Positions 2,370 through 19,338 of a stretch of 32,423 bases of DNA are shown here, piece after piece. The notes beneath the pieces are model-generated. The model was not told the DNA's origin, made no database searches, and saw only the letters and a program-made list of their open reading frames with translations. How positions within the stretch are numbered: the first letter of the stretch is position 1; every line of letters starts with the position of its first letter. Source of the DNA: an uncultured Verrucomicrobiae bacterium (GTDB lineage: Bacteria; Verrucomicrobiota; Verrucomicrobiia; Chthoniobacterales; JAFAMB01); assembly GCA_963813025.1 (NCBI GenBank), contig CAWEXO010000007.1, forward strand, positions 1 to 32,423. The letters are read 5' to 3'. A program made the position numbers and the translations under genes.

Positions 2370-3005
2370 TTAAGGGCGAGGGCCCTTTTGCGTAAGGACG
2401 CCGCGGCGTACAGAGGTGCGACCGACCTTTAGCCGTTTGGCGATCTCGCGTTTACTGAGTCCGCTGGCGAAGAGACGTTTAATTTCGGCACTGCGTGCTT
2501 TGACGGTCGGTGGTCGGCCATGAGGCTGACCTCGTGCTCTGGCTTGCGCAATGCCAGCCTTCACACGCTCGCGCAGTATTTCGCGCTCAAACTCGGCGAA
2601 AACGGCCAGCATGCCGGCCAGCGCTCGCCCGCTTGGGGTGGTTAGATCTAGCGCTTCGCACAAGGAGACAAAGCCGACGCCCAGCGTCGAGAGTTCTTGA
2701 AGCGAACCGATCAGATCGAGCAAGGATCGCCCCCAACGATCCAGGCGCCAGACCAGAATCGCATCAATCTGACGGCGCCGTGCCGCTTTGATCAGTTCTT
2801 CGCGTTGCGGTCGCTCACTGGCGCCCGAACCCACATCTTCGACGGCTTTGACCACTTTCCAGCTGCGCCGCCTGGCGTACTGACGCATCGCCTTCACCTG
2901 CAAAGGCAGCGTCTGCTGATCATGAGTGGATATCCGCGCATAAATGCCAACGCGAAGCGCTTCTACTACTCTGGCCAAAAATCCTCCGCGAGCACCACCC
3001 CCCAA
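2370..3005 (-). CDS. tnpR: Serine recombinase/resolvase (start uncertain)
   Basis: GIYARIST catalytic Ser motif, LVWRLDRWGRS, FAEFEREILRERVKAG, GRPP, C-terminal HTH. Confidence 0.88.
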   Translation of the reverse strand: MGGGARGGFLARVVEALRVGIYARISTHDQQTLPLQVKAMRQYARRRSWKVVKAVEDVGSGASERPQREELIKAARRRQIDAILVWRLDRWGRSLLDLIGSLQELSTLGVGFVSLCEALDLTTPSGRALAGMLAVFAEFEREILRERVKAGIAQARARGQPHGRPPTVKARSAEIKRLFASGLSKREIAKRLKVGRTSVRRGVLTQKGPRP

Positions 3006-3104
3006 TCCCTCTAAATGCAGGGGGCGCTTTGCTCAAAAAACGCTATGGCGTAAAACATTAGTTAAAGGTCATACTACGCCCGATTTCTCGTCCAGGAAAA
3101 GCTC
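3006..3104. promoter_or_regulatory. Probable res site and divergent promoters between tnpR and tnpA
   Basis: AT-rich spacer between divergent resolvase and transposase genes, the usual res location in this arrangement; subsites not resolved. Confidence 0.45.
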
Positions 3105-6050
3105 ATGCCACGTAAAGCCGTTTTGAGTGCAGCCCAGCAAGCGGCTTTGATCGCCTTGCCGAGCGCAGAACATGACCTTCGGCTGCACTATACGTTGAGT
3201 GAGAATGATCTTGCGATCATCCGCAGCAAGCGTGGCCCGCATAACCGACTCGGCTTCGCCATCCAACTGTGTTACCTGCGCTTTCCAGGCCAGGCCATGA
3301 CTTTGGAGGCGGAACCGCCGGCTGAGCTCTTAGCGCACGTCGCCCAGCAAATTCAGGTCACTCCAGACGCCTGGACCGAATATGCCTCCCGGGACGAAAC
3401 CCGACGCGAGCATGCGCTCGAACTGCAAAGCGTCTTTGGCTACCGGCCGTTTACGATCGCCGAGTACCGCCGGCTTCGCGGGTGGTTGACCGACCTTGCC
3501 CTGCAGACCAACAAAGCCTTGGCTCTGGCCGAACAGCTCATTGAATCGTTACGCAGCCAACACATCTGTTCCGACGGTCACCATGATCGACCGCCTGTGC
3601 GCCGAGGCGCTCGCCCGTGGCGTAAAGTTACTCTATCAACGGCTGACCCGATCGCTCGACGGAGACGGCCGCGCCAAACTGGATGCCTTGCTGTTGCCGC
3701 GGGAAGATCTCCGCACGGTCGTGCTCACCTGGCTTCGACAGCCGCCCGGAGAGCCAAAGGCCCGGAATGTGCTCGCCCATCTCGATCGGTTGCATCGTAT
3801 TCGCGAAGTAAAGCTCTCGGCTAACCTTAGCCAAGCGGTCCATCAGGGTCGCATGGCTCAGCTCGCGCGCGAGGGTGCGCAAATGAGCGCTCAACACTTA
3901 CGAGACCTGGAAAACCGACGACGCCATGCCACGCTAATTGCCGTGTTGCTTGATACCGAAGCGACGATCACCGATCAGATCCTCGACATGCACGACCGCA
4001 TCGTGGGGCGGATGTTCAACGAGGCGAAGCGCAAGCATGAACAAAGCTTTGCCGACTCGGGAAGGGCGATTAACGAAAAGATGCGGTTGTACGTTCGAGT
4101 CGGTCATGCGTTGATCGACGCACGGCAAAAAGGGCTCGATCCCTACGCAGCAATCGAAGCCGTGGTGGCCTGGGACCGCTTCACTCAAAGCGTGGATGAG
4201 GCGGAGCGGCTGGCCGAGCCGGAATCCTTCGATCATCTGCATCTTCTAACCGAAAGCTACGGTCAAGTGCGCCGCTACGCGCCAGCATTGCTGGAGACAT
4301 TCGACTTTGGTGCAGCGCCCGCCGTTGCTCCCTTGCTGGCGGCGATCGACACGTTGCGCGCCATGAATCGCAGTAACGCGCGCAAGGTGCCCGACGACGC
4401 ACCGATGGGTTTCCTGCGTCCGCGCTGGAAACCCTACGTGCTCGCCGAGGCCGGTGCGGGTCGGCCGTTTTATGAACTCGCGGTGCTCACGGAGCTCAAA
4501 AACGGGTTGCGTGCCGGTGACATGTGGGTGCCCGGCTCGCGCCAGTTCAAAGACTTCGAAGCGTATCTGTTGGGGCGAGAGCGTTTCGCCAAGCTGCAAG
4601 ACGCGCAGGCTCTGCCCGTCGCCATCGAGGTAGACAGCGAACGTTATCTGCAGGCGCGTCTTGCACTCCTCCAAGAGAAGCTGCACCAAGTCGATCGACT
4701 CGCGGGTCAGGGTGAACTGCCGGATGCAGAAATTACGGGTGAGCTGCTTAAAGTAAGTCCCCTGAAGAAAGCGGTGCCCGAGGAGGCAGAGCAACTCGAA
4801 GAGGAAGCCTTCGCCCTCATGCCACACCTGAAGATCACCGAGCTTCTGCTTGAGGTCGATCAGTGGACCGACTTTACGCGTCAGTTTACGCACCTCAGGA
4901 GCGGCGAGTTGGCCAGAGACCGCTCGATGTTACTAACCGTAATCTTGGCGGATGCGATCAACCTGGGCTTGGCAAAGATGGCCGAAGCGTGTCCAGGGAC
5001 TACCTTTCGCAAGCTCGACAGCTTGAGAGCTTGGCATGTCCGTGAGGAGACCTACTCCAAAGCCCTCGCCGAAATCGTCAATTACCAGCATAGCTTACCC
5101 TTTTCCGGCCATTGGGGCGCGGGGACAACCTCCTCGTCTGACGGACAGTATTTTCACGTCGGTGGGCGCGGTGAACACGCCGGCCAGGTCAACGCTCGTT
5201 ACGGCAGTGGTCCTGGGGTTACCTTCTACACGCATATCTCGGACCGCTATGCGCCCTTCCATACCAAGGTCATTAACTCGACGGTGCGCGACGCAACCCA
5301 CGTGCTCGATGGACTGCTTTACCATGAATCGGACTTGCGAATCGAAGAACACTAAACCAACACGGCCGGCTTCACCGACCACGTGTTTGGCCTCTGCCAC
5401 TTGTTGGGCTTCCGTTTTGCGCGCCGCATTCGCGATCTCGCCGACCGGCGGCTGTACACCGCCGAAAAAGCCAAGCGCTATCCGACGCTTCGGCCGTTTA
5501 TCGGAGGCACGATCAACCTCAAACAACTTCTGGCCCAGTGGTCAGAGATCCTACGGCTTGGTTGCTCTATCCGCCTGGGCACGGTGCCCTCCTCGCTGAT
5601 CCTGCGAAAACTGGCCAGCTACCCGCGACAAAATGCCCTCGCCTTGGCTTTGCGGGAATTTGGCCAGATAGAACGCACGCTCTTTACGCTCGACTGGCTG
5701 CTCGACAAGGATCTGCGCCAGCGCGTGACAGCCGGCCTCAACAAAGGAGAACTCAAAAATTCGCTGGCCAAGGCCGTCTGCTTTAATCGCTTAGGGGAAC
5801 TGCGCAACGTCACCGCGCAAGCGGCCTCAACCTGGTGGTCGCCGCGATTATCCTGTGGAATACCGTATATCTGGAGCGCGCGCTCGGGGCGCTTCGCCAA
5901 CAAGGGCGGCAAGTCGACGAAGGCTTACTCAAGCATCTGGCGCCGGTCCATTGGAACCACATTAACCTCACCGGCGATTACTCCTGGCGGCAGAACAAAC
6001 ACGTCGAGAAGGGCGGTTTTCGGCCACTCAGGATCTCGCCCGAAGCTTAG
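3105..6050 (+). pseudogene. tnpA: Tn3-family transposase (Tn21/Tn501-like), disrupted
   Basis: MPRKAVLS…[44 protein letters not shown]; frameshift near 3565, TAA at 5353-5355 in place of Tyr (IEEH*TNT), deletion near 5808; stop codon lies inside the IR. Confidence 0.92.
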
Positions 6051-6083
6051 CGTACTTTATTTCCCTTTTCGTCAAAGGACCCC
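6046..6083 (-). repeat. 38-bp Tn3-family terminal inverted repeat at the tnpA end
   Basis: Reverse complement GGGGTCCTTTGACGAAAAGGGAAATAAAGTACGCTAAG. Confidence 0.92.
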
Positions 6084-6265
6084 TTACAGACCGAGCACGG
6101 GTGCTCGCCGTCGAAGGTCTGAACAAGGCCAGCCTTTAGCCCGGCCCGCTGGCTGTACTGGACAATCATGCCAAGCCAGGCGCTCGTTTGCAGCAACGCC
6201 CAGTGACCTCCCAAAATTTGCAGGAGGGCCAGAGCGCAAAAAAAGATGCCAAAACGCGGCCGCAT
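6084..6265 (-). pseudogene. Hydrophobic hypothetical protein with HPCxxC motif, truncated by the transposon end
   Basis: [39 protein letters not shown]…[12 protein letters not shown] runs straight into the IR. Confidence 0.6.
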
Positions 6266-6504
6266 CGGTTCCCGTGTGGCATGTTGACCGGTTCAGCGCC
6301 AAAGGCAACTGCCCAAATGCCCGCCGCAAGTCAACCGCCCCGAGACTGCGGCCCAAGCTTTAGATTTTAGACCTTTGTGCTGATCGTGACGGGAATTTGC
6401 CACTGCTAACGCAATCTCGGCGTCCCCTAGTGCGATGTGAGACAAAGTGTCGCAAAAACGGCGCTTTTGCGACCCGTTCCCGCGACATTCACACATCCCG
6501 CTTG

Positions 6505-6528
6505 ATATATCGGTAAATACCGATACAT
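6505..6528 (+). promoter_or_regulatory. ArsR/SmtB-type operator palindrome overlapping the putative promoter
   Basis: Perfect 8-2-8 core TATCGGTA-AA-TACCGATA (6508-6525), extending to 11-2-11 with one mismatch; TTGATA -35-like hexamer at 6502-6507; ATG at 6537. Confidence 0.75.
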
Positions 6529-6536
6529 GGAAGGTA

Positions 6537-6920
6537 ATGCGAGACTTTACTTCCCTTGGGCAAGCCATCGTAGATCCGACACGCGTCCGCATTATTGCTG
6601 CTCTACGGCGCTGGGAACTGTGCGTGTGTGAGTTGGTAGACGCATTGGAGATCAGCCAATCGACTCTCTCCGGTCATCTTCAGGTCCTTCGGCAGACTGG
6701 CCTGGTTGTTACCAGGAAGGAAGGCCGCTGGATTTACTATTCTCTTTCTGATCGGAAAACTGCACTGATCGAGGCGATATTCTTTCAGGCTAAACCCGAT
6801 AGTGATACCGATCCGCGCCTCCGCCGTGACACGCGGCGAATCGAGCGCCGCTTGGCCATTCGTGAGAACGGGCATATATTGTCGGCTTCACGGAGTTGGA
6901 AGAACATCAGGCTGCTTTGA
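6537..6920 (+). CDS. arsR: ArsR/SmtB-family metalloregulatory repressor (alpha3 CVC type); C-terminal tail possibly frameshifted
   Basis: DPTRVRII…ELCVCELVDALEISQSTLSGHLQVLRQTGLV…RKEGRWIYYSL winged HTH. Confidence 0.88.
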   Translation: MRDFTSLGQAIVDPTRVRIIAALRRWELCVCELVDALEISQSTLSGHLQVLRQTGLVVTRKEGRWIYYSLSDRKTALIEAIFFQAKPDSDTDPRLRRDTRRIERRLAIRENGHILSASRSWKNIRLL

Positions 6921-6928
6921 AATAATCG

Positions 6929-8173
6929 ATGTCTCAATCTCCAGAAACTATCGAAAGTTTGGCGCTCCGAGCCGCGCCAGCACTCCATGAGATCGCTCGT
7001 GGCATGGCGCTCAGAAAATGCCGCAAGTGCGGCTGCATGAAAGATGCTCTCAATCAGGCAGGGCACGCTTTTGAGACTTCCGAAGACCCGAAAATCCGCT
7101 CTTTTCTGCCGCGCATTTCCGATTATCAGGCGAGGATGGAGACGCTGGCCTACGACTGTATTGGCTGTAAAAAATGCTGGGGTGCGGACGCTACCATTGA
7201 GCTCGCCAACCATTTTGATGAGGTGGAGCTCGATACGTGCAGCGATGAGCACTCCCCCGGCGGCATAAAATCGGCTGTTACCTCTTCGAATAGGTACGCG
7301 CGCTCATCAGCGATAGCTGCTTGGCCGCCGCATCCGGGTGACTATGTTTTGGGCAACCCTGAGGGGAGCGTGGCCATTTGCACGCTTTCTAATCGCGATC
7401 TGCCTGCCCGTCTTATTGCTGTCGGAGAACCGGCTGTGGCAATTGCGGGTCGCTGTGACACCGAAAATATTGGTATTGAAAAAGTCGTATTAAATCTGCT
7501 GGCCAATCCACGGATTCGCTGGTTGGTAATCTGCGGCACAGAAGCCAAGGGCCACCGTGCCGGAGACGCTTTTCTCCAACTGAAAGAGCGAGGCGTTGAT
7601 GCTGATATGCGGGTCCTGGAGTCAGCTTCCTGGCGGCCGATTCTTAAAAACTTGACGCTTTTAGACGTGGCACAGTTTCGCCAACAAATTGAGGAGGTTA
7701 ACGTCATTGGCGTTATTGATATAAAGGAAATTCTCGCCGCCGTTCGCGACTGCTCTCACAGCCCGGTGCAGGCATTTCCTGCTGTTCCCGACGAGGCCGC
7801 CGGGCGCAAAGACATACTTGCAGCGGTCGAACACATCCCTGCCAAGGCTCCAAAGCAACTAAGACTTGATCGCGCCGGATTCTTCATTGTTCTGCCGCAG
7901 CCGCAGAAAGGTCTGATTGTCTGTGAACATTACGAAAACAATGGTCGCTTGGCTCATGTCATCGAAGGACGGCAAGCGGCGCTGATCGCTTCTACAGTCG
8001 TGGAGCGCGGATTTGTGACACAACTGGACCACGCCGCGTACCTGGGCCGCGAGCTGGCCAAGGCCGAGGCGGCGCTTTCGTATGGCATCACTTACGAGCA
8101 GGATGCCGCCCTCGGCCGGCTCGCAGCAGCGGAGCCGCACAAAACGAAAAAATCCGACTGCCAGTGCAGCTAG
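6929..8173 (+). CDS. Fusion of an N-terminal Cys6 domain, an MtrA-like corrinoid-binding domain and a DUF4346 domain
   Basis: CRKCGC…CIGCKKC; WPPHPGDYVLGNP, AIAGRCDTENIGIEKVVLNLLANPRIRWLVICGTEAKGH match MtrA motifs; LDRAGFF…LDHAAYLGRELAKAE…YEQD matches DUF4346. Confidence 0.85.
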   Translation: MSQSPETIESLALRAAPALHEIARGMALRKCRKCGCMKDALNQAGHAFETSEDPKIRSFLPRISDYQARMETLAYDCIGCKKCWGADATIELANHFDEVELDTCSDEHSPGGIKSAVTSSNRYARSSAIAAWPPHPGDYVLGNPEGSVAICTLSNRDLPARLIAVGEPAVAIAGRCDTENIGIEKVVLNLLANPRIRWLVICGTEAKGHRAGDAFLQLKERGVDADMRVLESASWRPILKNLTLLDVAQFRQQIEEVNVIGVIDIKEILAAVRDCSHSPVQAFPAVPDEAAGRKDILAAVEHIPAKAPKQLRLDRAGFFIVLPQPQKGLIVCEHYENNGRLAHVIEGRQAALIASTVVERGFVTQLDHAAYLGRELAKAEAALSYGITYEQDAALGRLAAAEPHKTKKSDCQCS

Positions 8174-8228
8174 ATCGTGGCTTTCGGCCCGGTGATGAAA
8201 CGCCTCCGAAACCAAGCAGGTAACGAAT

Positions 8229-8627
8229 ATGACCACAAAAACCAAATGGCCAGGCGCACTTTTGGCCGTAGCAATCACTCTAGTCGCAGGGGGTATCAGG
8301 GCGCAGGATCAGCAGCGGCAACAGCGAACGTCGGAGGGCGCTGTGAGCGTTAATGATCTTGCCGCTAAACCCGGGGAGCACCTGGGCCAAGTGCAGCTGA
8401 TCGGTGTTGTGGCCGCTGTCTCACAAGGACAAGGCTTTGTGCTCGTAGACAAGCGCGAGTATGCCGATTGTGGCCTGACCTGCTTAGCTGAACCAGGTAC
8501 AAAGAAAATTCCGGTACGCTGGAGCGGCGACGCTCCAAAGCTTGAACAAACAGTCCGTGTCGCGGGCATCTTGGGCCAGAGCGCGCAGGGTCTAAGTTTT
8601 GTTGCACAGCAGATAGGTATCCAGTGA
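8229..8627 (+). CDS. Secreted hypothetical protein, OB-fold-like, with CxxxC
   Basis: Signal peptide MTTKTKWPGALLAVAITLVAGGIRA; SVNDLAAKP…VQLIGVV…CGLTC…VRVAGIL; GTGA overlap with the next gene. Confidence 0.75.
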   Translation: MTTKTKWPGALLAVAITLVAGGIRAQDQQRQQRTSEGAVSVNDLAAKPGEHLGQVQLIGVVAAVSQGQGFVLVDKREYADCGLTCLAEPGTKKIPVRWSGDAPKLEQTVRVAGILGQSAQGLSFVAQQIGIQ

Positions 8628-9199
8628 ATGTGACGAGGCTAATTACCGCGGTCGTCTTTATCGCAATCTTTGTCGCGCACGCTCTTTACGTGAGCGCGTG
8701 TGCCGCCTCAGCCCCTTCCGGCTGGACGGACTTCGGTATTAGCGCCCATGTCGTCGGGCCGCTGGGCCTGGGGGCTTACTGGCGCGGACAGGATTATTTC
8801 ATCGGTTTTTCCTATGCGTTGGCTGCGGCGTTCGCGACATGGGCGCTCAGTCGCAGCATCCTCTTTCGTCAAGGAAGGGCCGTTACGGCGGGAGCCGCTG
8901 CAGGCGGGGTGACGCTTTTGGGAGCGCTCATGGCCGGCGGCTGTTTTCTAATCGGCTGTTGTGGATCACCGATGCTAGCTGTCTACCTGAGCCTGTTCGG
9001 CGCCAACGCGTTGGGCTTAGGCAAACCCTTAATGGCCTTGGTGACTCTGATTTCCGTCAGCTGTGGTTACTGGTGCCTTTCGCGCCGTCTCGCGCGAGGA
9101 AGCACTTGCATGGACGATTGCTGTTCTGGGTCAGACACCCCTGCTGGGATCGAGGGCATTAACAGATTCAAAGCTAAGATAAGAAGCCAGAAAGAATGA
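8624..9199 (+). CDS. Cys-rich multi-pass membrane protein (GCCGSP motif)
   Basis: About 4 hydrophobic segments; GGCFLIGCCGSPML, SCGYWC and tail CMDDCC; overlapping stop/start with the upstream gene. Confidence 0.78.
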   Translation: MNVTRLITAVVFIAIFVAHALYVSACAASAPSGWTDFGISAHVVGPLGLGAYWRGQDYFIGFSYALAAAFATWALSRSILFRQGRAVTAGAAAGGVTLLGALMAGGCFLIGCCGSPMLAVYLSLFGANALGLGKPLMALVTLISVSCGYWCLSRRLARGSTCMDDCCSGSDTPAGIEGINRFKAKIRSQKE

Positions 9200-9323
9200 T
9201 CTCATACCCGGCGGCGATCATCGCAAGGAACGATTAGACCCCGCCAAACAGTAACCAATGCGCCATCCGATTCCGCGCTGATGAAGTAAGTACGGCGCTC
9301 CCCTGCTCAGTCTTGGCTAAATC

Positions 9324-12300
9324 GGCCCAGTGAAAACATTCGTTTCACCAGGGGCAAAGTAGCGCTGAACGTGGCAGTCAGGCAGCAACGGCATCTTGTC
9401 CGATGGCCAATCTCTGGCTCATGTCGAGCCGAAAAGTCCCGTAGGGAGTCACGTGAGCGTAGATGAGCGGCGTCAGTGCACGTAGATCATCTGGCAGCAT
9501 GCGTTGCGTCCAATCGGGCTCGGTCAAGACACGCTGGATCATCAGGGTGTTGATGTAGACAAGGCAGATCTGCAGGAGGTGAAGTGCCAGCATAGTGAGC
9601 TCCTGGTTTTCCAGGTCGTTGGTAGCGATCTCACCGCCTTTGCCGTACAGGATGAAGCTGTTGGCCCCGTTCCAGGTCTCGATGACGTTGAGGCCTTCTT
9701 GGATTTCGCGCCGCAGCGCTTCGGAGTGTAGGTACCGACACAGAAAGATCGTTTTGATCGCCTTGCCGAACTCTGCAAAAGCTAGGTATGTAGGATGTTT
9801 TAGGTTGTTGCGGGCGAAGCGTTTCAAAATCGCCTCCGTCTCCGCTGTGCCCAAGCGTAAGGCGGTGGCATACTTGATCATCTGATCGTATTGCTGCTGG
9901 ATTAGTTACCAATCGATGGGGCGGGTCAACACGACTTGGAGGTTGGGATACGCTTCAGGCCGGCCGGCCTCGGCCCGATACAGCTTCTGGGCATGGATAG
10001 CTTTGAGCCTTGGCAAAAGCTGAAAGCCAAGCAGGCGGCAGAAGGCGAAAGCCACCTCGCTTTGTCCGTGCGAATCGACGTAGTTTTTCTCGACCTCCAT
10101 CTCTGTATCATGGCGTAGCAAGCCTTCGATCATGGCCGCAACTTCGGACAAGGAACAGGTTTTCAACTGCGAGTAGATGCAGACCGCGTGCTTCTCGACA
10201 TGCCAGTAAATCATGATGCCTTGACCGCCGTAGCGCACGTGTCACTCCGTCATGAGGATCCCAGGAGCCGAACTTTTTGGAGTCCGAAGCGCAGGCCGTC
10301 GTCGCCTCGCCCCAGATATGAGGCAGGCGGATCCGAAACACCCCATTGACAACCTTGGCAATAGCTTCGCGGAACGGCTCTTTGCGGATGAAACGTCGGC
10401 GCACATAGACCAAATCGGGGTAGCTTTCGGCCCCCGCGCCGCTACTTACGCGCTTCAGTCCGGTGTTCGTGCCCAGCCCGTACAAGCAGAGTAAGAGGCG
10501 CTTCTGCAACGTCGCCGGATCCAGAGACTCGCGTCCGGTTGCGCTCTTGAATGCCTTGCTGAAGTCGGTACGTAAATCGGTCTCTTTGAGCATGTCGAGG
10601 AGACTGGTCATCGGCCAGCGCTTGAGGATCTCGCTTTTAAGATCCGATAGATTGACCGGTTCAGGCTGCGCGTTCAGGGGCGAGAGCGCGATCCAGCCGT
10701 GACGCTTTTGCAGGATCTTGACGTGTGGATTCTTTGGCAGACCGCGATCCAGCAGGGTGAGCGCTTCGTTCATTTCCCGTTGCACACCGCCAAGGAAGCT
10801 CTCGACGTCTTGTGGAAGGTTGAGCGCGGCATAGTATTGCTCACGCTGGACTTCGAAATCTGTCGGTAAATCCTCGTCCGGGTTGCGATAGCGGTTGGCG
10901 CCGACCACCCAGATCTCTTTACATCGCAGGCGCTCGCGCAAGACTTGCAACACGCAGAGCTCGTATTTGAGCCGGTCCACGCGCAAATGCCCTTGCTTAT
11001 CCGGCATGAGAATGAGCTCGCGCCACCCGCTGCTCACGACTCCCTCCAGGGGGACCTCTTCTGGGTCATAAAACCTCGGGGCGTGCTCTACAGTTTGTTT
11101 AATGACGTCGAGGGCACGGATCACGGGTTGGTGCATCTGGTTGTTGGAACGAAACTCCAGCGCCTGCAACAAGGCCGGGATCGCCCGTCTGTAGTGATGG
11201 CTGTAGGAGGCGCGCATCACCGTGGAGACGTGCTGGCGATAGGCCGGGCCAGTGCTCTTAAGCTCCTTCACCAAGTCGGCGAGGGTCTGCTCATCGACCA
11301 CGGGAAAAAGCACTTCGCGGATGATCCCATCGGGGTTAGCGAGTGCCGTCTCGGCCAGCCGACACAATAAAGTGTTTTTACTGGTCACCCGTTTCAACGT
11401 GCCAATCAGTTCGCGTTCGACGCGCCGCTCGGCCGTCGCGCCGATGCGGTGGATGATCTGAATCAGCGACTCGATCAAGTCGTCCGTGATCTCCTGTGCC
11501 CGCAGCCAGCAGTAAACGGCGATCAGACTGTAGCGCAATGATGCGGGATGGCGGCGGATCTCGTAAGCGTTCTCCACGGCGGCGCGTTGCCGATACCGCT
11601 GCAACAGTCGGGGAGCAACGTGACGCAAGAGGTCCTGTGCAAGGTTAAGCTGTCGGAGCTGTTGCAGCTTGCTAATCTCCTCGAGTGCGTTATCGAGGCC
11701 CGCCCGCCTCGGATCCGTTTTTAGTTGCTGAAGGGGCGAGTGCTCCGATTCCGCTGTTTCGCCACCTTCTGTCTCTGCACTGAGCAAGATTTCCAGCCGT
11801 CCTAATGCCTTGCGGCAGGACGTGCTCAGATAACCAGACGGCCAACTCCTCGGCATCTTGCACCGTCGGCTCGCGAAAGCCGAGGAAGGCACGGATCTGT
11901 GCGCGGTGGTATTTTACGGTGCGCCCTTCCCAGTCATAGCGTGAGAACTCCTCTGCCGGAACGCCTACCTGCCCGGCGATGTAGGCAACGGCAGTCGTCG
12001 GCACTTCCTGCATCGAGAGGGGAAAGCGGCCAGCATACTGAAAGAATTTCAGTGAAAGAATTTCAGCAACACGGCGAAGCCGAGGCGAGTGGGACCGGTC
12101 TTATTGGCCAACAGCGCCGCATCGGAAGGCAGAAGGGTCCAGTCGGCGAACTCCAAGTCGGTCCATTCGCGTTTCATACGATCGATCGCTCCTATTCATC
12201 CGAGATAAGAGGGTCGTTATCAGCAATGAAGCCGCTGTAGGATAGCACTTCGCACAAGAGCTGGAAGAGGAAGGACGACAGCGCTCAAAGGCGGGCGAGG

Positions 12301-12483
12301 TAAAAAACGCACTGAAACCGAGGCAACTCCTACCTGGTCACGAGTCGCACCAACCCGGCGGAACTTTACCGTGCTCAATGTCAATACACCAAGGTATCAA
12401 ACCCAGTCTGACACGGCGTGACGTTTATTCCAAACTCCTCAGTCCTACTTTGCCCCTGGTGACACGAATGTTTCTACTGGGCC
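9324..12483 (-). mobile_element. Resolvase-less Tn3-family element with 39-bp IRs and probable 5-bp TSD
   Basis: IR 9324-9362 GGCCCAGTGAAAACATTCGTTTCACCAGGGGCAAAGTAG vs reverse complement of 12445-12483 (36/39); TAAAT at 9318-9322 and 12484-12488. Confidence 0.85.
9378..12177 (-). pseudogene. tnpA: Tn3-family transposase (different clade from 3105-6050), disrupted
   Basis: MKREWT…[50 protein letters not shown]; several frameshifts, 14-bp tandem duplication at 12039-12066, nonsense codon at 9906-9908. Confidence 0.9.
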
Positions 12484-12832: not shown

Positions 12833-13891
12833 ATGAAACTAGCTAATACTGTCCTTTCGACTATTCTTGCGATCTCGTTGTCCGCCGGCCTCACCGCGAA
12901 TTCCCCTGGTGCAGATAACGCCTACAATGGCGGCCGCGCAATTAATCCAAGGAATTTGCAAGGTAAGAAAATTGTTCTTGCCGATATCCCGAAGCTGGTT
13001 GGCATCGGGTACTTCGCGGCAACCGCGAAAGGAATTGCTGACGGCTGCGCCGATCTGACCAAGAGCGGTTTGCCAACCGAGGTAACCACGGACGCGCCGA
13101 CGGAAGGAGATATTCAAAAGCAGATCGAATTTATCGACAACGCAATCTCGCGCGGAGTGGATGGCATTTTCTTTGCCGCGAACGATCCGGTGGCGATCTC
13201 ACCAGTCCTGCGGAAAGCACTTAAAGCAGGCATCCACGTCATCGGCTATGACGCCGAGTCGGAGCCCGATGCGCGGGAGTGGTTTGTACAGATGTGCACG
13301 CCCGACGCGGTTGCTAAAGCGATCATTGACGATATGGCCTCGCAGGTAGGAGAACAAGCCGATATCGCCTTGATCACCAGCTCGATGACAGCGGCGGGAC
13401 AGAATGCGTGGATCGCTGAGATCAAGAAATACATTCCTCAGGCTCATCCCAAGCTGAACTTAGTAACGATTCTCCCGGCGGAAGAGGATCAGCAACTGGC
13501 TTTCAAGGTCGCAGGACAGATCCTCAAAGCTTATCCCAACGTAAAAGGCATCATTGGCCTCTCGAGTGTGGCTTTTCCTGGAGCGGCTGACGCGATCACG
13601 CAGGCTAACCTGATCGGTAAGATTGCTGTCGTTGGGCTTTCAACGCCAAACCAGATGAAGCCCTTTGTCAAAAACGGGGCGGTCAAAGATGTCATTCTTT
13701 GGAATCCGGTTGACTTGGGTTACGCTGCTGCTTATGCGATGCGTGCGGTGGTTGACGGAAAATTGAAGCCAGGCGACACGGAAGTCGATGCGGGCAAACT
13801 CGGTAAACTGAAAGTGATCAACGGAAGCCAAATCTTGCTTGGGCCTCCCTTCGTTTTCACGAAGGACAATATCGATAAGTTTAACTTTTGA
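12833..13891 (+). CDS. Sugar ABC transporter substrate-binding protein (RhaS/LsrB-like)
   Basis: Signal peptide; [51 protein letters not shown]. Confidence 0.88.
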
Positions 13892-14008
13892 CTACCCGGC
13901 CGTAGAATAAGCTTCCAGCTTGTCAGTTTTTTTAACCGTAGGCGTCTTACTAACCACACTGCGGACGATTTGGGCGGCGTCGCAACCCGAGGACCCGCCT
14001 TCCTTACT

Positions 14009-14046
14009 GGCCTCACTACACCAAACGGAAAAAATTGTACGCTAAG
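14009..14046 (+). repeat. Degenerate Tn501/Tn21-like inverted repeat
   Basis: GGCCTCACTACACCAAACGGAAAAAATTGTACGCTAAG adjacent to a tnpA 3' remnant. Confidence 0.7.
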
Positions 14047-14048
14047 CC

Positions 14049-14330
14049 TCACGAAGCCGCTACGTTGACCGTAGTCGGCGCACCGACCGGCCGTAAGGGT
14101 CTCAATCGACCTTGAGCAAAGCGACCGTTGCTTTGCCGAGTGTAATCCCCAGTCAAGTTGATGTGCTCCCAGCCGACTGGTGAGACGTGAGGAAGGAGCA
14201 CATCTGAAGGCGATTCCATGTTGACGCAGTGCATTGATAGCGCGCTCGAGATACATCGTGTTCCACAATATGATCGCGAGGACCACCAAGTTTAGCCCGC
14301 TGGCGCGGTAACGTTCGTTTCCGTAACTGG
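14049..14330 (-). pseudogene. tnpA: Tn3-family transposase C-terminal remnant
   Basis: [25 protein letters not shown], then after a frameshift [19 protein letters not shown]…RLRPLRP. Confidence 0.85.
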
Positions 14331-14473
14331 AGCCGCCAGCCGATTGGGTGCGAGAAGACTTGCCGGGATCGACTTCGGTGCACATTCGATTGAGCGCGGC
14401 TGTCCTGCTTCAGTCGGAATTGGAAAGTCGTGAGCTGAGGGTAAGCTAGTCGAGGCAAGAAAAACAAGCCTCG

Positions 14474-14802: not shown

Positions 14803-15771
14803 GTGGCCCACGACATTCGTGACGCGATCATGGACTTCATCGCACATTGGTCGGACTGGACCGGGATTGGTGCCTTGCAGATGGTCGGCTGGATGAGTTT
14901 GAGCCGCAGCAAGTATTACTCCTGGCGCGATCGCTACGGCAAAGTCAACGAACACAACGCCTTAGTCCCGCGGGATCATTGGCTGGAGCCCTGGGAAAAG
15001 CGAGCCATTATCGATTTCCAGCAAGCCTTCCCGCTGGAGGGCTACCGTCGCCTGACCTTCATGATGTTGGATCGCGATGTGGTGGCGGTCTCTCCCTCCA
15101 GCACCTATCGGGTGCTGACCGCCGCCGGGCTTCTGCAGCGCTGGAACCCAAAGCCTTCCCGTAAAGGAAACGGCTTCCAGCAACCGCTTGGGCCGCACGA
15201 ACACTGGCATGTCGATATCTCTTATCTCAACATTGCTGGTACCTTCTTTTATCTCTGTTCGGTCCTGGATGGTTGTTCGCGATTCCTGCTCCATTGGGAA
15301 TTGCGGACGGCTATGACCGAACTGGATGTCGAGATTGTCTTGCAGCGCGCACGCGAAAGTTATCCGGACAGCTCTCCCCGAATTATCACTGACAATGGTC
15401 CGCAGTTTATCGCCAAGGATTTCAAGGAATTTATCCGGCTGGCCGGCCTGACCCATGTCAAAACCTCTCCCTATTACCCGCAAAGCAACGGCAAAATTGA
15501 ACGCTGGCACCAAAGCCTCAAAACCGATTGCCTTCGGCCTGGCTGCCCGCTTTCCCGGCAGGATGCCGCTCGGCTCATCGAGCGTTTTATTAAGCATTAC
15601 AATACCGTCCGGCTCCACTCGGCCATCGGCTATATCACCCCGGCTGATCGCCTCGCCGGCCGCCACCGCGAAATCTTTGCCGAGCGAGATCGTAAACTCG
15701 AACTGGCTCGCCAAAACCGAAAACTTAAACGACAATCCCTAACCCAAAACACACCCACCTCGACTAGCTAA
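14803..15771 (+). CDS. IS3-family transposase OrfB (rve/DDE), probably fused to OrfA by -1 frameshift
   Basis: WHVDISY, IITDNGPQF, PQSNGKIERWH, RLHSAIGYITP; in the -1 frame relative to OrfA with A7G at 14767-14774. Confidence 0.9.
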   Translation: MAHDIRDAIMDFIAHWSDWTGIGALQMVGWMSLSRSKYYSWRDRYGKVNEHNALVPRDHWLEPWEKRAIIDFQQAFPLEGYRRLTFMMLDRDVVAVSPSSTYRVLTAAGLLQRWNPKPSRKGNGFQQPLGPHEHWHVDISYLNIAGTFFYLCSVLDGCSRFLLHWELRTAMTELDVEIVLQRARESYPDSSPRIITDNGPQFIAKDFKEFIRLAGLTHVKTSPYYPQSNGKIERWHQSLKTDCLRPGCPLSRQDAARLIERFIKHYNTVRLHSAIGYITPADRLAGRHREIFAERDRKLELARQNRKLKRQSLTQNTPTSTS

Positions 15772-17756: not shown

Positions 17757-19338
17757 CCCGGATATTTCATCATAAGTGCAAAAAAGTAGCGAAGTTTTTT
17801 ATATAACCTGTTAGCAATGAATTAGTTACAAACAAAGCAACAGGAAACTTCGCTAATGACAAAATGTACTGAGTTTGATTTCGAATTACCAGGAGTAAAA
17901 GGGAGAAAGATTCAAGGCAATTTCGAAGGTGGAGAAGTCACCAGCGACGGCGGCTTGGTGGTACTGCGGCAAGTCGACCGCTGGATTGGTCTAACCAAGG
18001 CATTGGCCAAGCGCTTGCCCGATCAGCGAGATCCGGACAAGATCGAGCATTCCTTGGGGAGCATGCTCCGGCAGCGCATTTACGAATTGGCCCTGGGCTA
18101 TGAAGATCTTAATGACCATGACACTTTGCGCAAAGATCCATTGTGGCAGACGGACAGTGAACGAACCGAGCAATTAGCCAGTTGCTCGACGCTGTGTCGA
18201 TTCGAAAACCGAGCGGGGCGCACGGAAGCGCGGCTGATGCACGAAGTGTGGTTCGAGCAGTTTGTGGGCAGCTTCGAATCGGCACCCAGCGAATTGATTC
18301 TGGATTTTGACTGCACCGACGATCGGGTGCACGGCCTGCAAGAAGGTCGCCACTTCCACGGCTATTACTACGATTTTTGCTTTTTGCCGCTTTATGTCTT
18401 TTGCGGCGAACAGCTGCTGGTCAGTTACCTGCGAGAGAGTAACATTGATTCGGCCAAACATGCCTGGGCGATCTTGGCCTTGGTGGTCAAAGGACTGCGC
18501 CGACGCTGGCCTCAGGTCAAGATTATCCTGCGAGCCGATAGCGGGTTCTGCCGCTGGAAGATGCTGCGTTGGTGCGAGCGTCACCAAGTCCAGTACCTGG
18601 TTGGATTGGCCAAAAATCCGCGACTCAACGCACTGTCGGTCAAACTGCAAAGACGCGCGCAACGTAAACACCAGAAGAGCGGGAAAAAAGTGCGGCTCTT
18701 CACGCACTTTAAGTACAAAGCCAAAACCTGGGACAAGAAACGCCGGGTGATCGCCAAGGCCGAACACAACGATCGGGGTGCTAATCCGCGCTACGTGCTT
18801 ACCAATTTAGAGGGACGTGCGCAGGCACTCTACGATGAGATTTATTGCGCTCGCGGGGAGATGGAAAATCGCATCAAAGAACAGCAGCTTGGCCTCTTCA
18901 GTGATCGCACCAGCTGTCATGCTTGGTGGGCCAATCAGTTCCGACTCTTGCTCTCCTCGGCCGCCTACGTGCTTTTAGAAGCGCTGCGACGTATCGGCTT
19001 AAGCGGCACCCAATTAGCCTGTGCCCAGGTTGGCACTATCCGCTTACGCTTACTGAAAGTCGGTGCGCTCATCACCCGTAATACTCGCCGAATACGCTTG
19101 CGCTTGAGCTCAAGCTTTCCACTCCAAGCACTCTTTTGCTCCTGCCTAGCGCATTTTTACGGTTAAGGTCCCTTCGCGGTGCTGACCCCGGCACCCGAAA
19201 AACAACGGCGGCTTACTCGCGGTGTCTCCCGAGGGCGCTCTTGCAGCATCCAATCGCCCGCTTTTTGACAAAACTATTACCATCCCCAACTATCTTATCT
19301 CGCACTTGCGCTAACCTCCACGTGATGCAAAACGCGGG
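17757..19338 (+). mobile_element. IS1380-family insertion sequence
   Basis: Ends CCCGGATATTTCATCA and reverse complement CCCGCGTTTTGCATCA; 4-bp TSD TTAG at 17753-17756 and 19339-19342. Confidence 0.92.
17856..19166 (+). CDS. IS1380-family transposase (intact ORF)
   Basis: FEGGEVTSDGG, GYEDLNDH, LDFDCTDD, RADSGF, YCARGEMENRIKEQQ. Confidence 0.93.
   Translation: MTKCTEFDFELPGVKGRKIQGNFEGGEVTSDGGLVVLRQVDRWIGLTKALAKRLPDQRDPDKIEHSLGSMLRQRIYELALGYEDLNDHDTLRKDPLWQTDSERTEQLASCSTLCRFENRAGRTEARLMHEVWFEQFVGSFESAPSELILDFDCTDDRVHGLQEGRHFHGYYYDFCFLPLYVFCGEQLLVSYLRESNIDSAKHAWAILALVVKGLRRRWPQVKIILRADSGFCRWKMLRWCERHQVQYLVGLAKNPRLNALSVKLQRRAQRKHQKSGKKVRLFTHFKYKAKTWDKKRRVIAKAEHNDRGANPRYVLTNLEGRAQALYDEIYCARGEMENRIKEQQLGLFSDRTSCHAWWANQFRLLLSSAAYVLLEALRRIGLSGTQLACAQVGTIRLRLLKVGALITRNTRRIRLRLSSSFPLQALFCSCLAHFYG

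Follow-up and report, generated by a model that had tools for sequence, protein, structure and literature searches.

An ArsR-headed, cysteine-rich gene cassette around a bacterial MtrA-like corrinoid protein and its possible role in thiophilic metal or metalloid handling

Contig CAWEXO010000007.1 of an uncultured Verrucomicrobiae bacterium (NCBI GenBank assembly GCA_963813025.1) carries four genes built around a bacterial homolog of MtrA, a corrinoid protein of methanogens. The window, by which we mean the whole stretch of 32,423 nucleotides that was analysed, is this single 32.4-kb contig; the genome is 80% complete and holds the cassette as a single copy. The genes encode an ArsR-type regulator, a 414-residue MtrA-like protein and two small proteins of 132 and 191 residues (P132 and P191). 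They form a real conserved module that exceeds a chance arrangement, because the gene set recurs across phyla and occurs as fusions. We give roughly even chances to the reading that the genes make up an accessory operon, spread horizontally, that deals with a thiophilic metal or metalloid and in which a relay of Cys residues ends at the corrinoid protein. Its layout recalls mer and its ingredients HgcAB, but it is homologous to neither. The observations behind this reading are the gene set, its co-conservation and fusions, the cobalamin residues, the substitution of selenocysteine (Sec) for Cys, the protein folds, and the metal-gene neighbourhood. The cassette comprises the following features:

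6502..6526, plus strand: conserved operator block, near-invariant in 7/7 aligned loci
6537..6920, plus strand: arsR, an ArsR/SmtB repressor with an ELCVCEL motif (HTH_5, 3.5e-17)
6929..8173, plus strand: MtrA-like three-domain protein of 414 aa, with PF04208 and PF14251 matches
8229..8627, plus strand: P132, extracytoplasmic protein with a signal or anchor and, by fold match, an OB-fold; CxxxC at C81 and C85
8624..9199, plus strand: P191, polytopic membrane protein with C107-x4-C112-C113, H19 and a Cys-rich C-terminal tail

The four plus-strand open reading frames (ORFs), namely arsR, the 414-aa MtrA-like/DUF4346 gene, the 132-aa gene and the 191-aa gene, span 6537-9199. A first-pass annotation had described them, from the DNA letters and a list of ORFs, as co-oriented and tightly spaced genes behind a palindromic operator with clustered Cys in every product, and this four-gene observation is confirmed in genes, spacing, motifs and operator. 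The ORF survey returned the same intergenic distances of 8 bp and 55 bp and a final junction formed by a GTGA start/stop overlap. The Cys clusters are CVC in the regulator, CxxCxC, CxxCxxC and CQC in the corrinoid protein, CxxxC in P132, and CC twice in P191.

Conservation and Fusions of the Gene Set

The family of the MtrA-like protein comprises 988 proteins at E<=0.001 among 8,000 candidates scored, and 543 of 603 metagenome stretches were confirmed as relatives. The locus set (L numbers) consists of 98 foreign loci, made up of 18 genome loci and the best 80 of the 543 confirmed metagenome loci; 150 representative proteins (P0 numbers) were drawn from 1362 proteins at E<=0.001, 164 of them at E<=1e-30. 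Family loci belong to at least seven phylum-level groups of bacteria and one archaeon. A tblastn search recovered the four genes in colinear order in 10 of the 18 foreign genome loci, which come from Verrucomicrobiota and one Acidobacteriota metagenome-assembled genome (MAG). A Geobacteraceae contig carries three cassette genes and then ends, and the 414-aa and 191-aa genes adjoin in loci from Bacteroidetes, Saganbacteria and Actinomycetota and in one locus of an unclassified bacterium. Divergent P132 homologs are present in L015, L016, L017 and L019.

For a census, every stop-to-stop frame of the 98 loci was scored with purpose-built profiles. The MtrA-like gene was found in 98/98 foreign loci and its Cys-rich N-domain in 85/98. 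A restricted census took the 30 loci with an N-domain and no less than 1.5 kb of sequence on each side. Of these, 25 have a same-strand ArsR gene within 1.5 kb, 20 have P191 and 20 have P132; a DsbD_TM protein occurs in three, and 23 have either P191 or DsbD_TM. Raw counts over the 85 N-domain loci (ArsR at least 54, P191 at least 48, P132 at least 46) are lower bounds because many of the contigs are short. None of ArsR, P191 and P132 was found in the six loci whose MtrA-like gene is without the N-domain.

The partners also occur as natural fusions. A P191 domain precedes the MtrA-like protein in P0375, P0377, P0381 and P0402 and follows it in P0404 (5/150 representatives), and a single ORF with P191 and MtrA-like domains is found in 5/80 metagenome loci. 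A transmembrane (TM) helix with a P132-type domain forms the C-terminus of P0371, P0403 and P0408, while P0446 ends inside such a domain. One representative, P0407, is fused to ArsR, and P0394 and P0433 carry a TM helix plus a thioredoxin-like domain. The co-conservation that the first-pass annotation had proposed to check is seen both in the neighbourhoods and in the fusions.

These data bear directly on the view that the four genes have no joint function and that a C1/folate-type corrinoid protein merely lies next to unrelated small genes on mobile DNA. That view can point to N-domain-less modules fused to thymidylate synthase (P0463) and dCTP deaminase (P0451), and to the position of the window copy between decayed transposons. 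It is already contradicted by the fusions to each partner, in both orders, and the co-conservation across several phyla, the conserved operator and the absence of the partners from all six loci without an N-domain argue against it as well; we regard it as scarcely credible. Homologs embedded in folate/thymidylate pathways, which the first-pass annotation had named as evidence that would count against its proposal, turned out to be limited to the subfamily without the N-domain. Only proteins of this kind have that context, and the idea that the cassette is a folate/thymidylate module was rejected on this ground.

Within 60 genomes of relatives the gene was found in five: 5/36 from the same family and 0/24 from the order's other families. 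Such a patchy spread is in keeping with a transferable accessory module. In four metatranscriptome libraries from soil or peat, contigs that are 85-97% alike span the four genes and bridge the three junctions. They give weak support for transcription of the cassette in relatives, because DNA carry-over is possible and a contig across two genes does not equal a single transcript. In public sequencing runs at most 0.32 of the sampled words were present, and no habitat claim is based on them.

The MtrA-Like Corrinoid Protein

The 414-aa protein matches MtrA (PF04208, 1.8e-39) over residues 128-283 and DUF4346 (PF14251, 5.6e-21) over residues 313-392; together with HTH_5 in the regulator (3.5e-17), all three families that the first-pass annotation had named for profile searches were recovered. 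Its domain order is a six-Cys N-domain (residues ~16-95), an MtrA-type corrinoid domain (128-283, with His209), DUF4346 (313-392) and a CQC tail, with Cys motifs C31xxC34xC36, C77xxC80xxC83 and terminal C411-Q-C413. The protein scores under every MtrA cut-off of NCBIfam (125.3 bits vs 249.15 for TIGR01111; 317.7 vs 568 for NF002128), and a hydrophobic segment that could serve as a C-terminal membrane anchor was not found in it.

The predicted model of the protein has a mean pLDDT of 86.5, and whole-model fold searches matched the MtrA domain alone. The middle domain superposes on 5LAA, an MtrA homolog with bound cobalamin, with a Z-score of 25.4 and an rmsd of 1.4 A over 153 residues at 38% identity (Foldseek E-value 2.6e-15). 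Among the cobalamin contacts described in the paper on this structure are His84, Thr53, Asn55, Gly57, Asn64 and Asp17/Tyr18 (PMC4915002), and these align to H209, T178, N180, G182, N189 and D138/Y139 of the 414-aa protein. H209, T178, E179, N180, G182 and N189 are invariant in 41 sequences with identities down to 29%. The cobalamin-binding residues of the solved MtrA, with the cobalt-binding His among them, are conserved.

The N-domain is helical, and C31, C34, C36, C77, C80 and C83 are invariant in the same 41 sequences. In five loci (L040, L050, L064, L088 and L097) an in-frame TGA stands at the position of C77, giving a U-x-G-C-x-x-C motif; these homologs are probably selenoproteins that gene callers have cut in two. 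C77 and C80 would form a reactive or ligand site and not be cluster ligands, because Sec occupies the place of C77 in relatives. DUF4346 retains D314, E333, H334, H368, Y371 and E375.

Two representatives, P0451 and P0463, consist of MtrA and DUF4346 without the Cys-rich N-domain, fused to dCTP deaminase in the first and to thymidylate synthase in the second. Proteins of this type retain the cobalt-binding His and form a separate subfamily with a nucleotide-metabolism context.

The Extracytoplasmic and Membrane Partners

P132 is predicted to be an OB-fold protein (pLDDT 82.4). Its fold matches include the OB domains of RPA, MCM and tRNA synthetases as well as the periplasmic proteins YgiW (Z 8.9) and CcmE (Z 8.7), and its CxxxC motif (C81, C85) sits in a helix between barrel strands. 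P132, too, gave no significant match to a Pfam, NCBIfam or Atlas family; its two NCBIfam matches (E 0.013 and 0.017) are at chance level.

P191 gave no significant match to a Pfam, NCBIfam or Atlas family. Its own family comprises 862 detected proteins, none of which has a Pfam domain, and a match to MerT was absent among 14 P191 relatives at E-values up to 5. Across the family CFLxGCCGSP (a CxxxxCC motif) and H19 are invariant; in P191 itself the vicinal Cys pairs are C112C113 and C166C167. The membrane domain occurs in fusions on either side of a cytoplasmic protein, which would place both termini of P191, the Cys-rich tail included, in the cytoplasm; a domain behind a single TM helix would lie outside. 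A complex prediction of the 414-aa protein with P191 was uninformative (score 0.00).

Regulator and Operator

A palindrome, ATATCGGTA-AA-TACCGATAT, is located at 6507-6526 within the conserved block 6502-6526. The block, TTGATATATCGGTAAATACCGATAT, is kept in 7/7 aligned loci, where it is invariant or nearly so, while the DNA 5' of it cannot be aligned; the palindromic operator that the first-pass annotation had placed ahead of the genes is therefore shared with relatives. The window palindrome has one arm mismatch, C for T at 6526. The block overlaps -35/-10-like hexamers. A generic promoter and terminator scan stayed at shuffle level (2 vs 1.8; 5 vs 3.4) and did not flag the conserved block. 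Just 5' of the operator, at 6444-6478, there is a hairpin with 17-nt arms that is not conserved in the aligned relatives; its core gives a terminator-like score on the minus strand as well.

The regulator exceeds the curated ArsR/SmtB threshold (NF033788, 94.9 bits, cut-off 55) and carries its Cys motif as C29-V-C31. A longer GTG start is open at 6447; relatives start at the ATG. Its relatives in the PDB are generic (SmtB, HlyU, NmtR, CmtR, BigR and CadC, E 1e-13 to 1e-8); on sequence grounds they do not name the inducer, and none appears to be a close characterised sensor. The score against the BigR model, of sulfite/persulfide type, is weak (57.8 bits, cut-off 155).

The window copy of arsR differs from L001 and from all relatives by a 1-bp deletion near 6874-6876, where mismatches are also clustered. 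The frameshift rewrites the last ~19 residues and deletes a conserved C-terminal Cys, part of a "RENGRC" ending in all relatives. The RNA-library contigs of relatives also carry the missing base, and the deletion may be genuine or an artefact of assembly. L001 is a same-genus record, 99.5% identical over 13.2 kb with 38 mismatches and 16 gaps.

The Bacteroidetes version of the cassette is headed by a CsoR-like regulator with a C-terminal CxxxCxxC instead of ArsR. The CsoR-family proteins at L015:4740-5075 and L016:2520-2855 end in CPGTCEYC and presumably do not have the usual copper-binding Cys position. The L016 gene lies directly behind a TonB-dependent receptor gene.

Neighbouring Genes in Relatives and in the Host Genome

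Neighbours were annotated with Pfam and NCBIfam, using ORFs of at least 90 or at least 140 residues; the 140-residue scan was limited to ~3 kb around the gene. The linkage to metal genes that the first-pass annotation had suggested looking for is seen in relatives, where mer, cad, znt, cus and ars genes lie near the cassette. A P1B ATPase is part of the same gene string in L013 (ZntA-like, CPC...DxG) and L017, and P1B ATPases of mixed subtypes are nearby in six further loci. MerR, MerT and MerB genes are found beside L002, MerR, MerT and MerP beside L006, MerB beside L056, and a MerR-family gene beside both L008 and L092. CadD occurs in L006 and L009, CDF proteins in nine loci, RND pumps in 10, and CusB-type adaptors in four, of which the annotated one (L096) has a heavy-metal-binding domain. 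L096 also has an ArsM-like gene 34 bp 5' of the MtrA-like gene, L045 a TPMT gene directly 3', and L051 an ArsP gene. At least four loci without P191 have a short membrane protein of the Cation_efflux family (CDF-like, ~195-218 aa) right after the MtrA-like gene:

L041:3496-4152, short CDF-like membrane protein
L056:5423-6064, short CDF-like membrane protein
L074:4043-4627, short CDF-like membrane protein
L077:1285-1869, short CDF-like membrane protein

The archaeal locus L018 encodes MerA (561.7 bits, cut-off 454.45) on the same strand as its MtrA-like gene, with a DsbD_TM gene and a cysteine-desulfurase-like gene between the two. In four cassette-bearing Verrucomicrobial genomes, MerA above the cut-off was found in none, a count that comes without figures for their completeness and that a divergent, lower-scoring MerA would escape. 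In two of these four merT adjoins the cassette; one of the two also has merB there, and the other merP. The host genome itself, at 80% completeness, yielded neither MerA above the cut-off nor MerT.

At L006:8404-10970 (minus strand), a CadD-MerR-X-MerT-MerP string without MerA converges on the cassette. The X product is a secreted protein, 269 aa long and without a family, and it carries a Cys pair as well as a C-terminal CC. Tetrapyrrole genes adjoin the module in two loci, hemA/hemC in L033 (130-2180) and hemB/hemL in L090 (3409-5648); the L033 hemC ORF also matches LMWPc.

Part of this neighbourhood would suit a chalcogen substrate, the corrinoid protein methylating S, Se or Te species, or a persulfide from the Cys relay, to a volatile product. 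The textbook reaction of MtrA is a methyl transfer to a thiol (PMC4915002). The TPMT methyltransferase gene comes right after the MtrA-like gene in L045, TauE/SafE genes are near it in L046, L062 and L069, and the regulator has its weak BigR score. The CsoR-like regulators carry other Cys in place of the one at the canonical position. What recurs near the gene, however, is cation pumps and mer genes; the CVC of the ArsR is a motif of metal(loid) sensors, and neither rhodanese nor sulfur-oxidation genes were recurrent in the neighbour census. On balance we assign the chalcogen substrate a slim chance.

Trafficking of cobalt or corrinoids is another way to account for the conserved cobalamin site: the module would serve to take up, store or protect cobalt or a cobamide, with the MtrA-like protein as a carrier and not an enzyme. 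A TonB-dependent receptor gene lies directly 5' in L016 and nearby in L015 and L036, the hem genes adjoin in L033 and L090, and CobS and CbiB were not detected in the 80%-complete host genome, which holds two B12-binding-domain genes. The receptor, however, is far under the BtuB cut-offs (50 bits vs 836; 49.2 vs 599.7), no cobalamin riboswitch was found in the window, in 10 loci or in the host genome, and the regulators are Cys-rich sensors of the metal type. Corrinoid transport has no need of the invariant Cys (Sec in some) of P132, P191 and the N-domain either. Trafficking is accordingly a very improbable explanation of the module.

Mobile Flanks and State of the Window Copy

The cassette is placed between two decayed Tn3 elements and inside neither, because no repeat pair encloses it. 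The flanking and other mobile features of the window are:

2370-3005, minus strand: resolvase gene, left flank
3105..6050, plus strand: left Tn3-family transposase remnant in three frames, with DUF4158 and DDE_Tnp_Tn3 pieces
9324..12483, minus strand: right Tn3-family element with 45-bp terminal inverted repeats at 9324-9368 and 12438-12483
250-1125, 13732-14385, 14803-15771 and 17856-19166: mobile-element genes elsewhere in the window

The right-hand element is a minimal Tn3-family element whose tnpA (9378-11892) is broken into three pieces and frames; its inverted repeats align with a score of 65 over 45 bp. A search for inverted repeats found this as the sole pair and no pair spanning 6040-9400. 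The cassette as a passenger of a Tn3-family transposon was rejected: both repeats of the right-hand element sit to the right of the cassette, and no pair encloses it. The first-pass annotation had called the cassette largely intact amid decayed flanks. The decay holds for the Tn3 flanks, which are broken over several frames; the intactness does not hold for arsR, with its 3' frameshift.

No matching repeat was detected for the left-hand Tn3 remnant (2370-6050). Mobile-element genes are abundant on the 32-kb contig, among them a DDE_3 transposase, a Tn3 fragment, an rve integrase and a DDE_Tnp_1_4 transposase, interspersed with sugar ABC-transporter and oxidoreductase genes.

Proposed Mechanism and Points Against It

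The layout that the first-pass annotation had read into the genes, a sensor, an extracytoplasmic binder, a membrane protein and a cytoplasmic corrinoid protein, holds by families, folds and fusions. From it we infer a direction of flow, a kind of substrate (links of the Hg, Cd/Pb/Zn and As types are all seen) and a chemistry. A three-Cys ArsR, combining CVC with the C-terminal Cys of relatives, would sit on the palindrome and leave it when the inducer binds. The CxxxC of P132 would capture the substrate outside the cytoplasm, and P191 would hand it across the membrane by ligand exchange on CxxxxCC and the cytoplasmic Cys tail. The substrate would then reach the Cys/Sec site (C77xxC80) of the MtrA-like N-domain, where a His-on cobamide may act by methyl transfer to or from the element or by two-electron reduction with Co(I). 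The remaining N-domain Cys could hold a cluster or metal that re-reduces the cobalt.

The principal competitor to this metal relay is a DsbD-like transmembrane relay that passes electrons instead of ions. The Cys/Sec pair of the MtrA-like protein would reduce P191 or a CcdA-like protein and, through it, a periplasmic OB-fold or thioredoxin-like protein, in order to repair thiols that metals or oxidants have damaged, or else to reduce some substrate in the periplasm. Its best argument is that a DsbD_TM protein after a gene for a TM-anchored thioredoxin-like protein fills the P191/P132 slots in at least six loci. DsbD_TM proteins are near the MtrA-like gene in seven loci by clustering and in 11/98 by profile search. 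Those in the partner slots carry NPCC and PCGTP motifs; their short PCGTPVL motif resembles CCGSPML of P191. The fusions with a TM helix and a thioredoxin-like domain (P0394 and P0433), the Sec at the first position of the UxxC motif and the Redoxin/AhpC-TSA family neighbours in L029, L092 and L096 are in keeping with such a relay, and the six Cys in a small helical N-domain presumably resemble those of cluster-plus-disulfide reductases.

Several features fit electron transfer poorly. Of six thioredoxin-like partners inspected, five have a single active-site Cys (DAC, DPC, DGC, DSC) and no CxxC, the sixth having CGC. Both P191 and the CcdA-like proteins have vicinal CC pairs, which are typical of metal ligands, and the profile similarity between P191 and seven DsbD_TM proteins of sister loci is not significant (hhalign probability 0.7%, E 0.085). 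The invariant cobalamin site would be left without a role, and P1B ATPases belong to the gene string of L013 and L017. We consider the electron relay unlikely, though it is the alternative that deserves most attention.

Beyond the DsbD_TM pairs in the partner slots, a number of findings weigh against the metal relay. Sec in a UxxC motif is typically found in redox catalysis and in metal binding alike. The MtrA-like gene is no simple replacement for MerA, because both co-occur in L018, and the short CDF-like protein is a third kind of membrane partner and fits export. The neighbours span Hg, Cd/Zn/Pb, Cu and As and may reflect general resistance islands; because they cover several metals, no single substrate is named. 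The statement of the first-pass annotation that no other mtr gene or methyl-donor enzyme is in the window stands: no MtrH- or MeTr-type protein was found there, and a search of the 80%-complete host genome did not recover MtrH (PF02007) either. The host would have to scavenge the cofactor, because its genome shows no CobS, CbiB or cobalamin riboswitch. The window copy, with a frameshifted arsR among decayed mobile elements, may not be normally regulated. Finally, a literature search on the family or on its link to metals, the wider part of it by title and abstract, returned no paper.

A more specific form of the metal relay is a second cobamide route for soft metal(loid)s, unrelated to HgcAB, in which a Cys/Sec relay leads to an MtrA-type corrinoid. 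Along this route Hg(II) or methylmercury (or Cd, Pb or As species) would be demethylated, methylated or reduced by Co(I). We hold it to be possible though doubtful. Demethylation and reduction independent of MerB and MerA have been reported in anaerobic soils and sediments, and the route, if true, would be a candidate for them. It would also explain islands of merT, merP or merB without merA in cassette-bearing Verrucomicrobial genomes. Confirmation would mean that a second, non-homologous corrinoid system adds an unrecognised step to mercury, arsenic or related cycling. It would supply new marker genes for metal(loid) cycling, roles for two new protein families, one membrane and one periplasmic, and a new selenoprotein family. 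It would also offer a clue to the role of the bacterial MtrA homologs, which have been known only as sequences since their mention in a 2016 structure paper (PMC4915002).

Comparison with Known Systems

A full-text literature search found no paper that mentions DUF4346 or PF14251, alone or with MtrA, and the terms MtrA and tetrahydromethanopterin are absent from the main text of a 2026 review of prokaryotic selenoproteins (PMC13188914). The closest relatives by structure are MtrA and the cytoplasmic MtrA homologs of methanogens (PF04208; 5LAA, 5L8X, 8Q3V and 9QTQ). They share with the 414-aa protein the fold of the middle domain and the same base-off/His-on cobalamin contacts. In methanogens MtrA hands its methyl group to a thiol, and the 2016 paper states no more than that MtrA homologs exist in some bacteria with the His mostly conserved (PMC4915002). 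A 2024 paper describes the activity of archaeal MtrA-like and MtrAH proteins as unclear (PMC11291895). The 414-aa protein differs from MtrA in falling under the equivalog cut-off, in having no TM anchor and no mtrB-H genes beside it, and in its extra six-Cys N-domain and DUF4346; it is bacterial, ArsR-regulated and found among metal genes.

DsbD and CcdA resemble the cassette in the Cys-mediated passage from the cytoplasm through a membrane protein to the periplasm, and DsbD_TM proteins with thioredoxin-like partners occupy the same operon slots in other loci. P191, however, is not detectably a DsbD_TM protein (PF02683), the cytoplasmic partner is a corrinoid protein and not a thioredoxin, and the thioredoxin-like partners in sister loci are mostly without CxxC.

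The mer operon has the same sequence of roles: a sensor, an extracytoplasmic Cys binder, a small Cys-bearing membrane protein and a cytoplasmic enzyme. In both systems the membrane protein has vicinal Cys, Cys-rich tails are found on the membrane protein and the enzyme, and mer genes are frequent neighbours of the cassette. No part is homologous, however. P191, P132 and the 414-aa protein had no Pfam or NCBIfam match to the MerT, HMA or MerA families: P191 does not match MerT, P132 is an OB-fold protein and not an HMA domain, and the enzyme is a corrinoid protein in place of a flavin disulfide reductase, under a regulator of the ArsR or CsoR type.

HgcAB drives methylmercury formation and is, to our knowledge, alone among enzyme systems in applying vitamin B12 to a toxic metal. 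HgcA has a CFeSP-type corrinoid domain with Cys-on cobalt ligation, and HgcB is a ferredoxin partner with 2x[4Fe-4S]. The families are unrelated: the cassette has an MtrA-type domain with a His ligand and, unlike HgcAB, no ferredoxin gene was found in it by the ORF and Pfam survey. Both systems nonetheless combine a corrinoid domain, a membrane domain (fused to it in some relatives of the cassette), a Cys-rich or redox element and a C-terminal Cys tail. Both have an adjacent ArsR-type regulator, a linkage noted for hgcAB (bioRxiv 10.1101/2022.10.17.512643), and in each family certain members have Sec where others have Cys; the 2026 review lists HgcA and HgcB as selenoproteins (PMC13188914).

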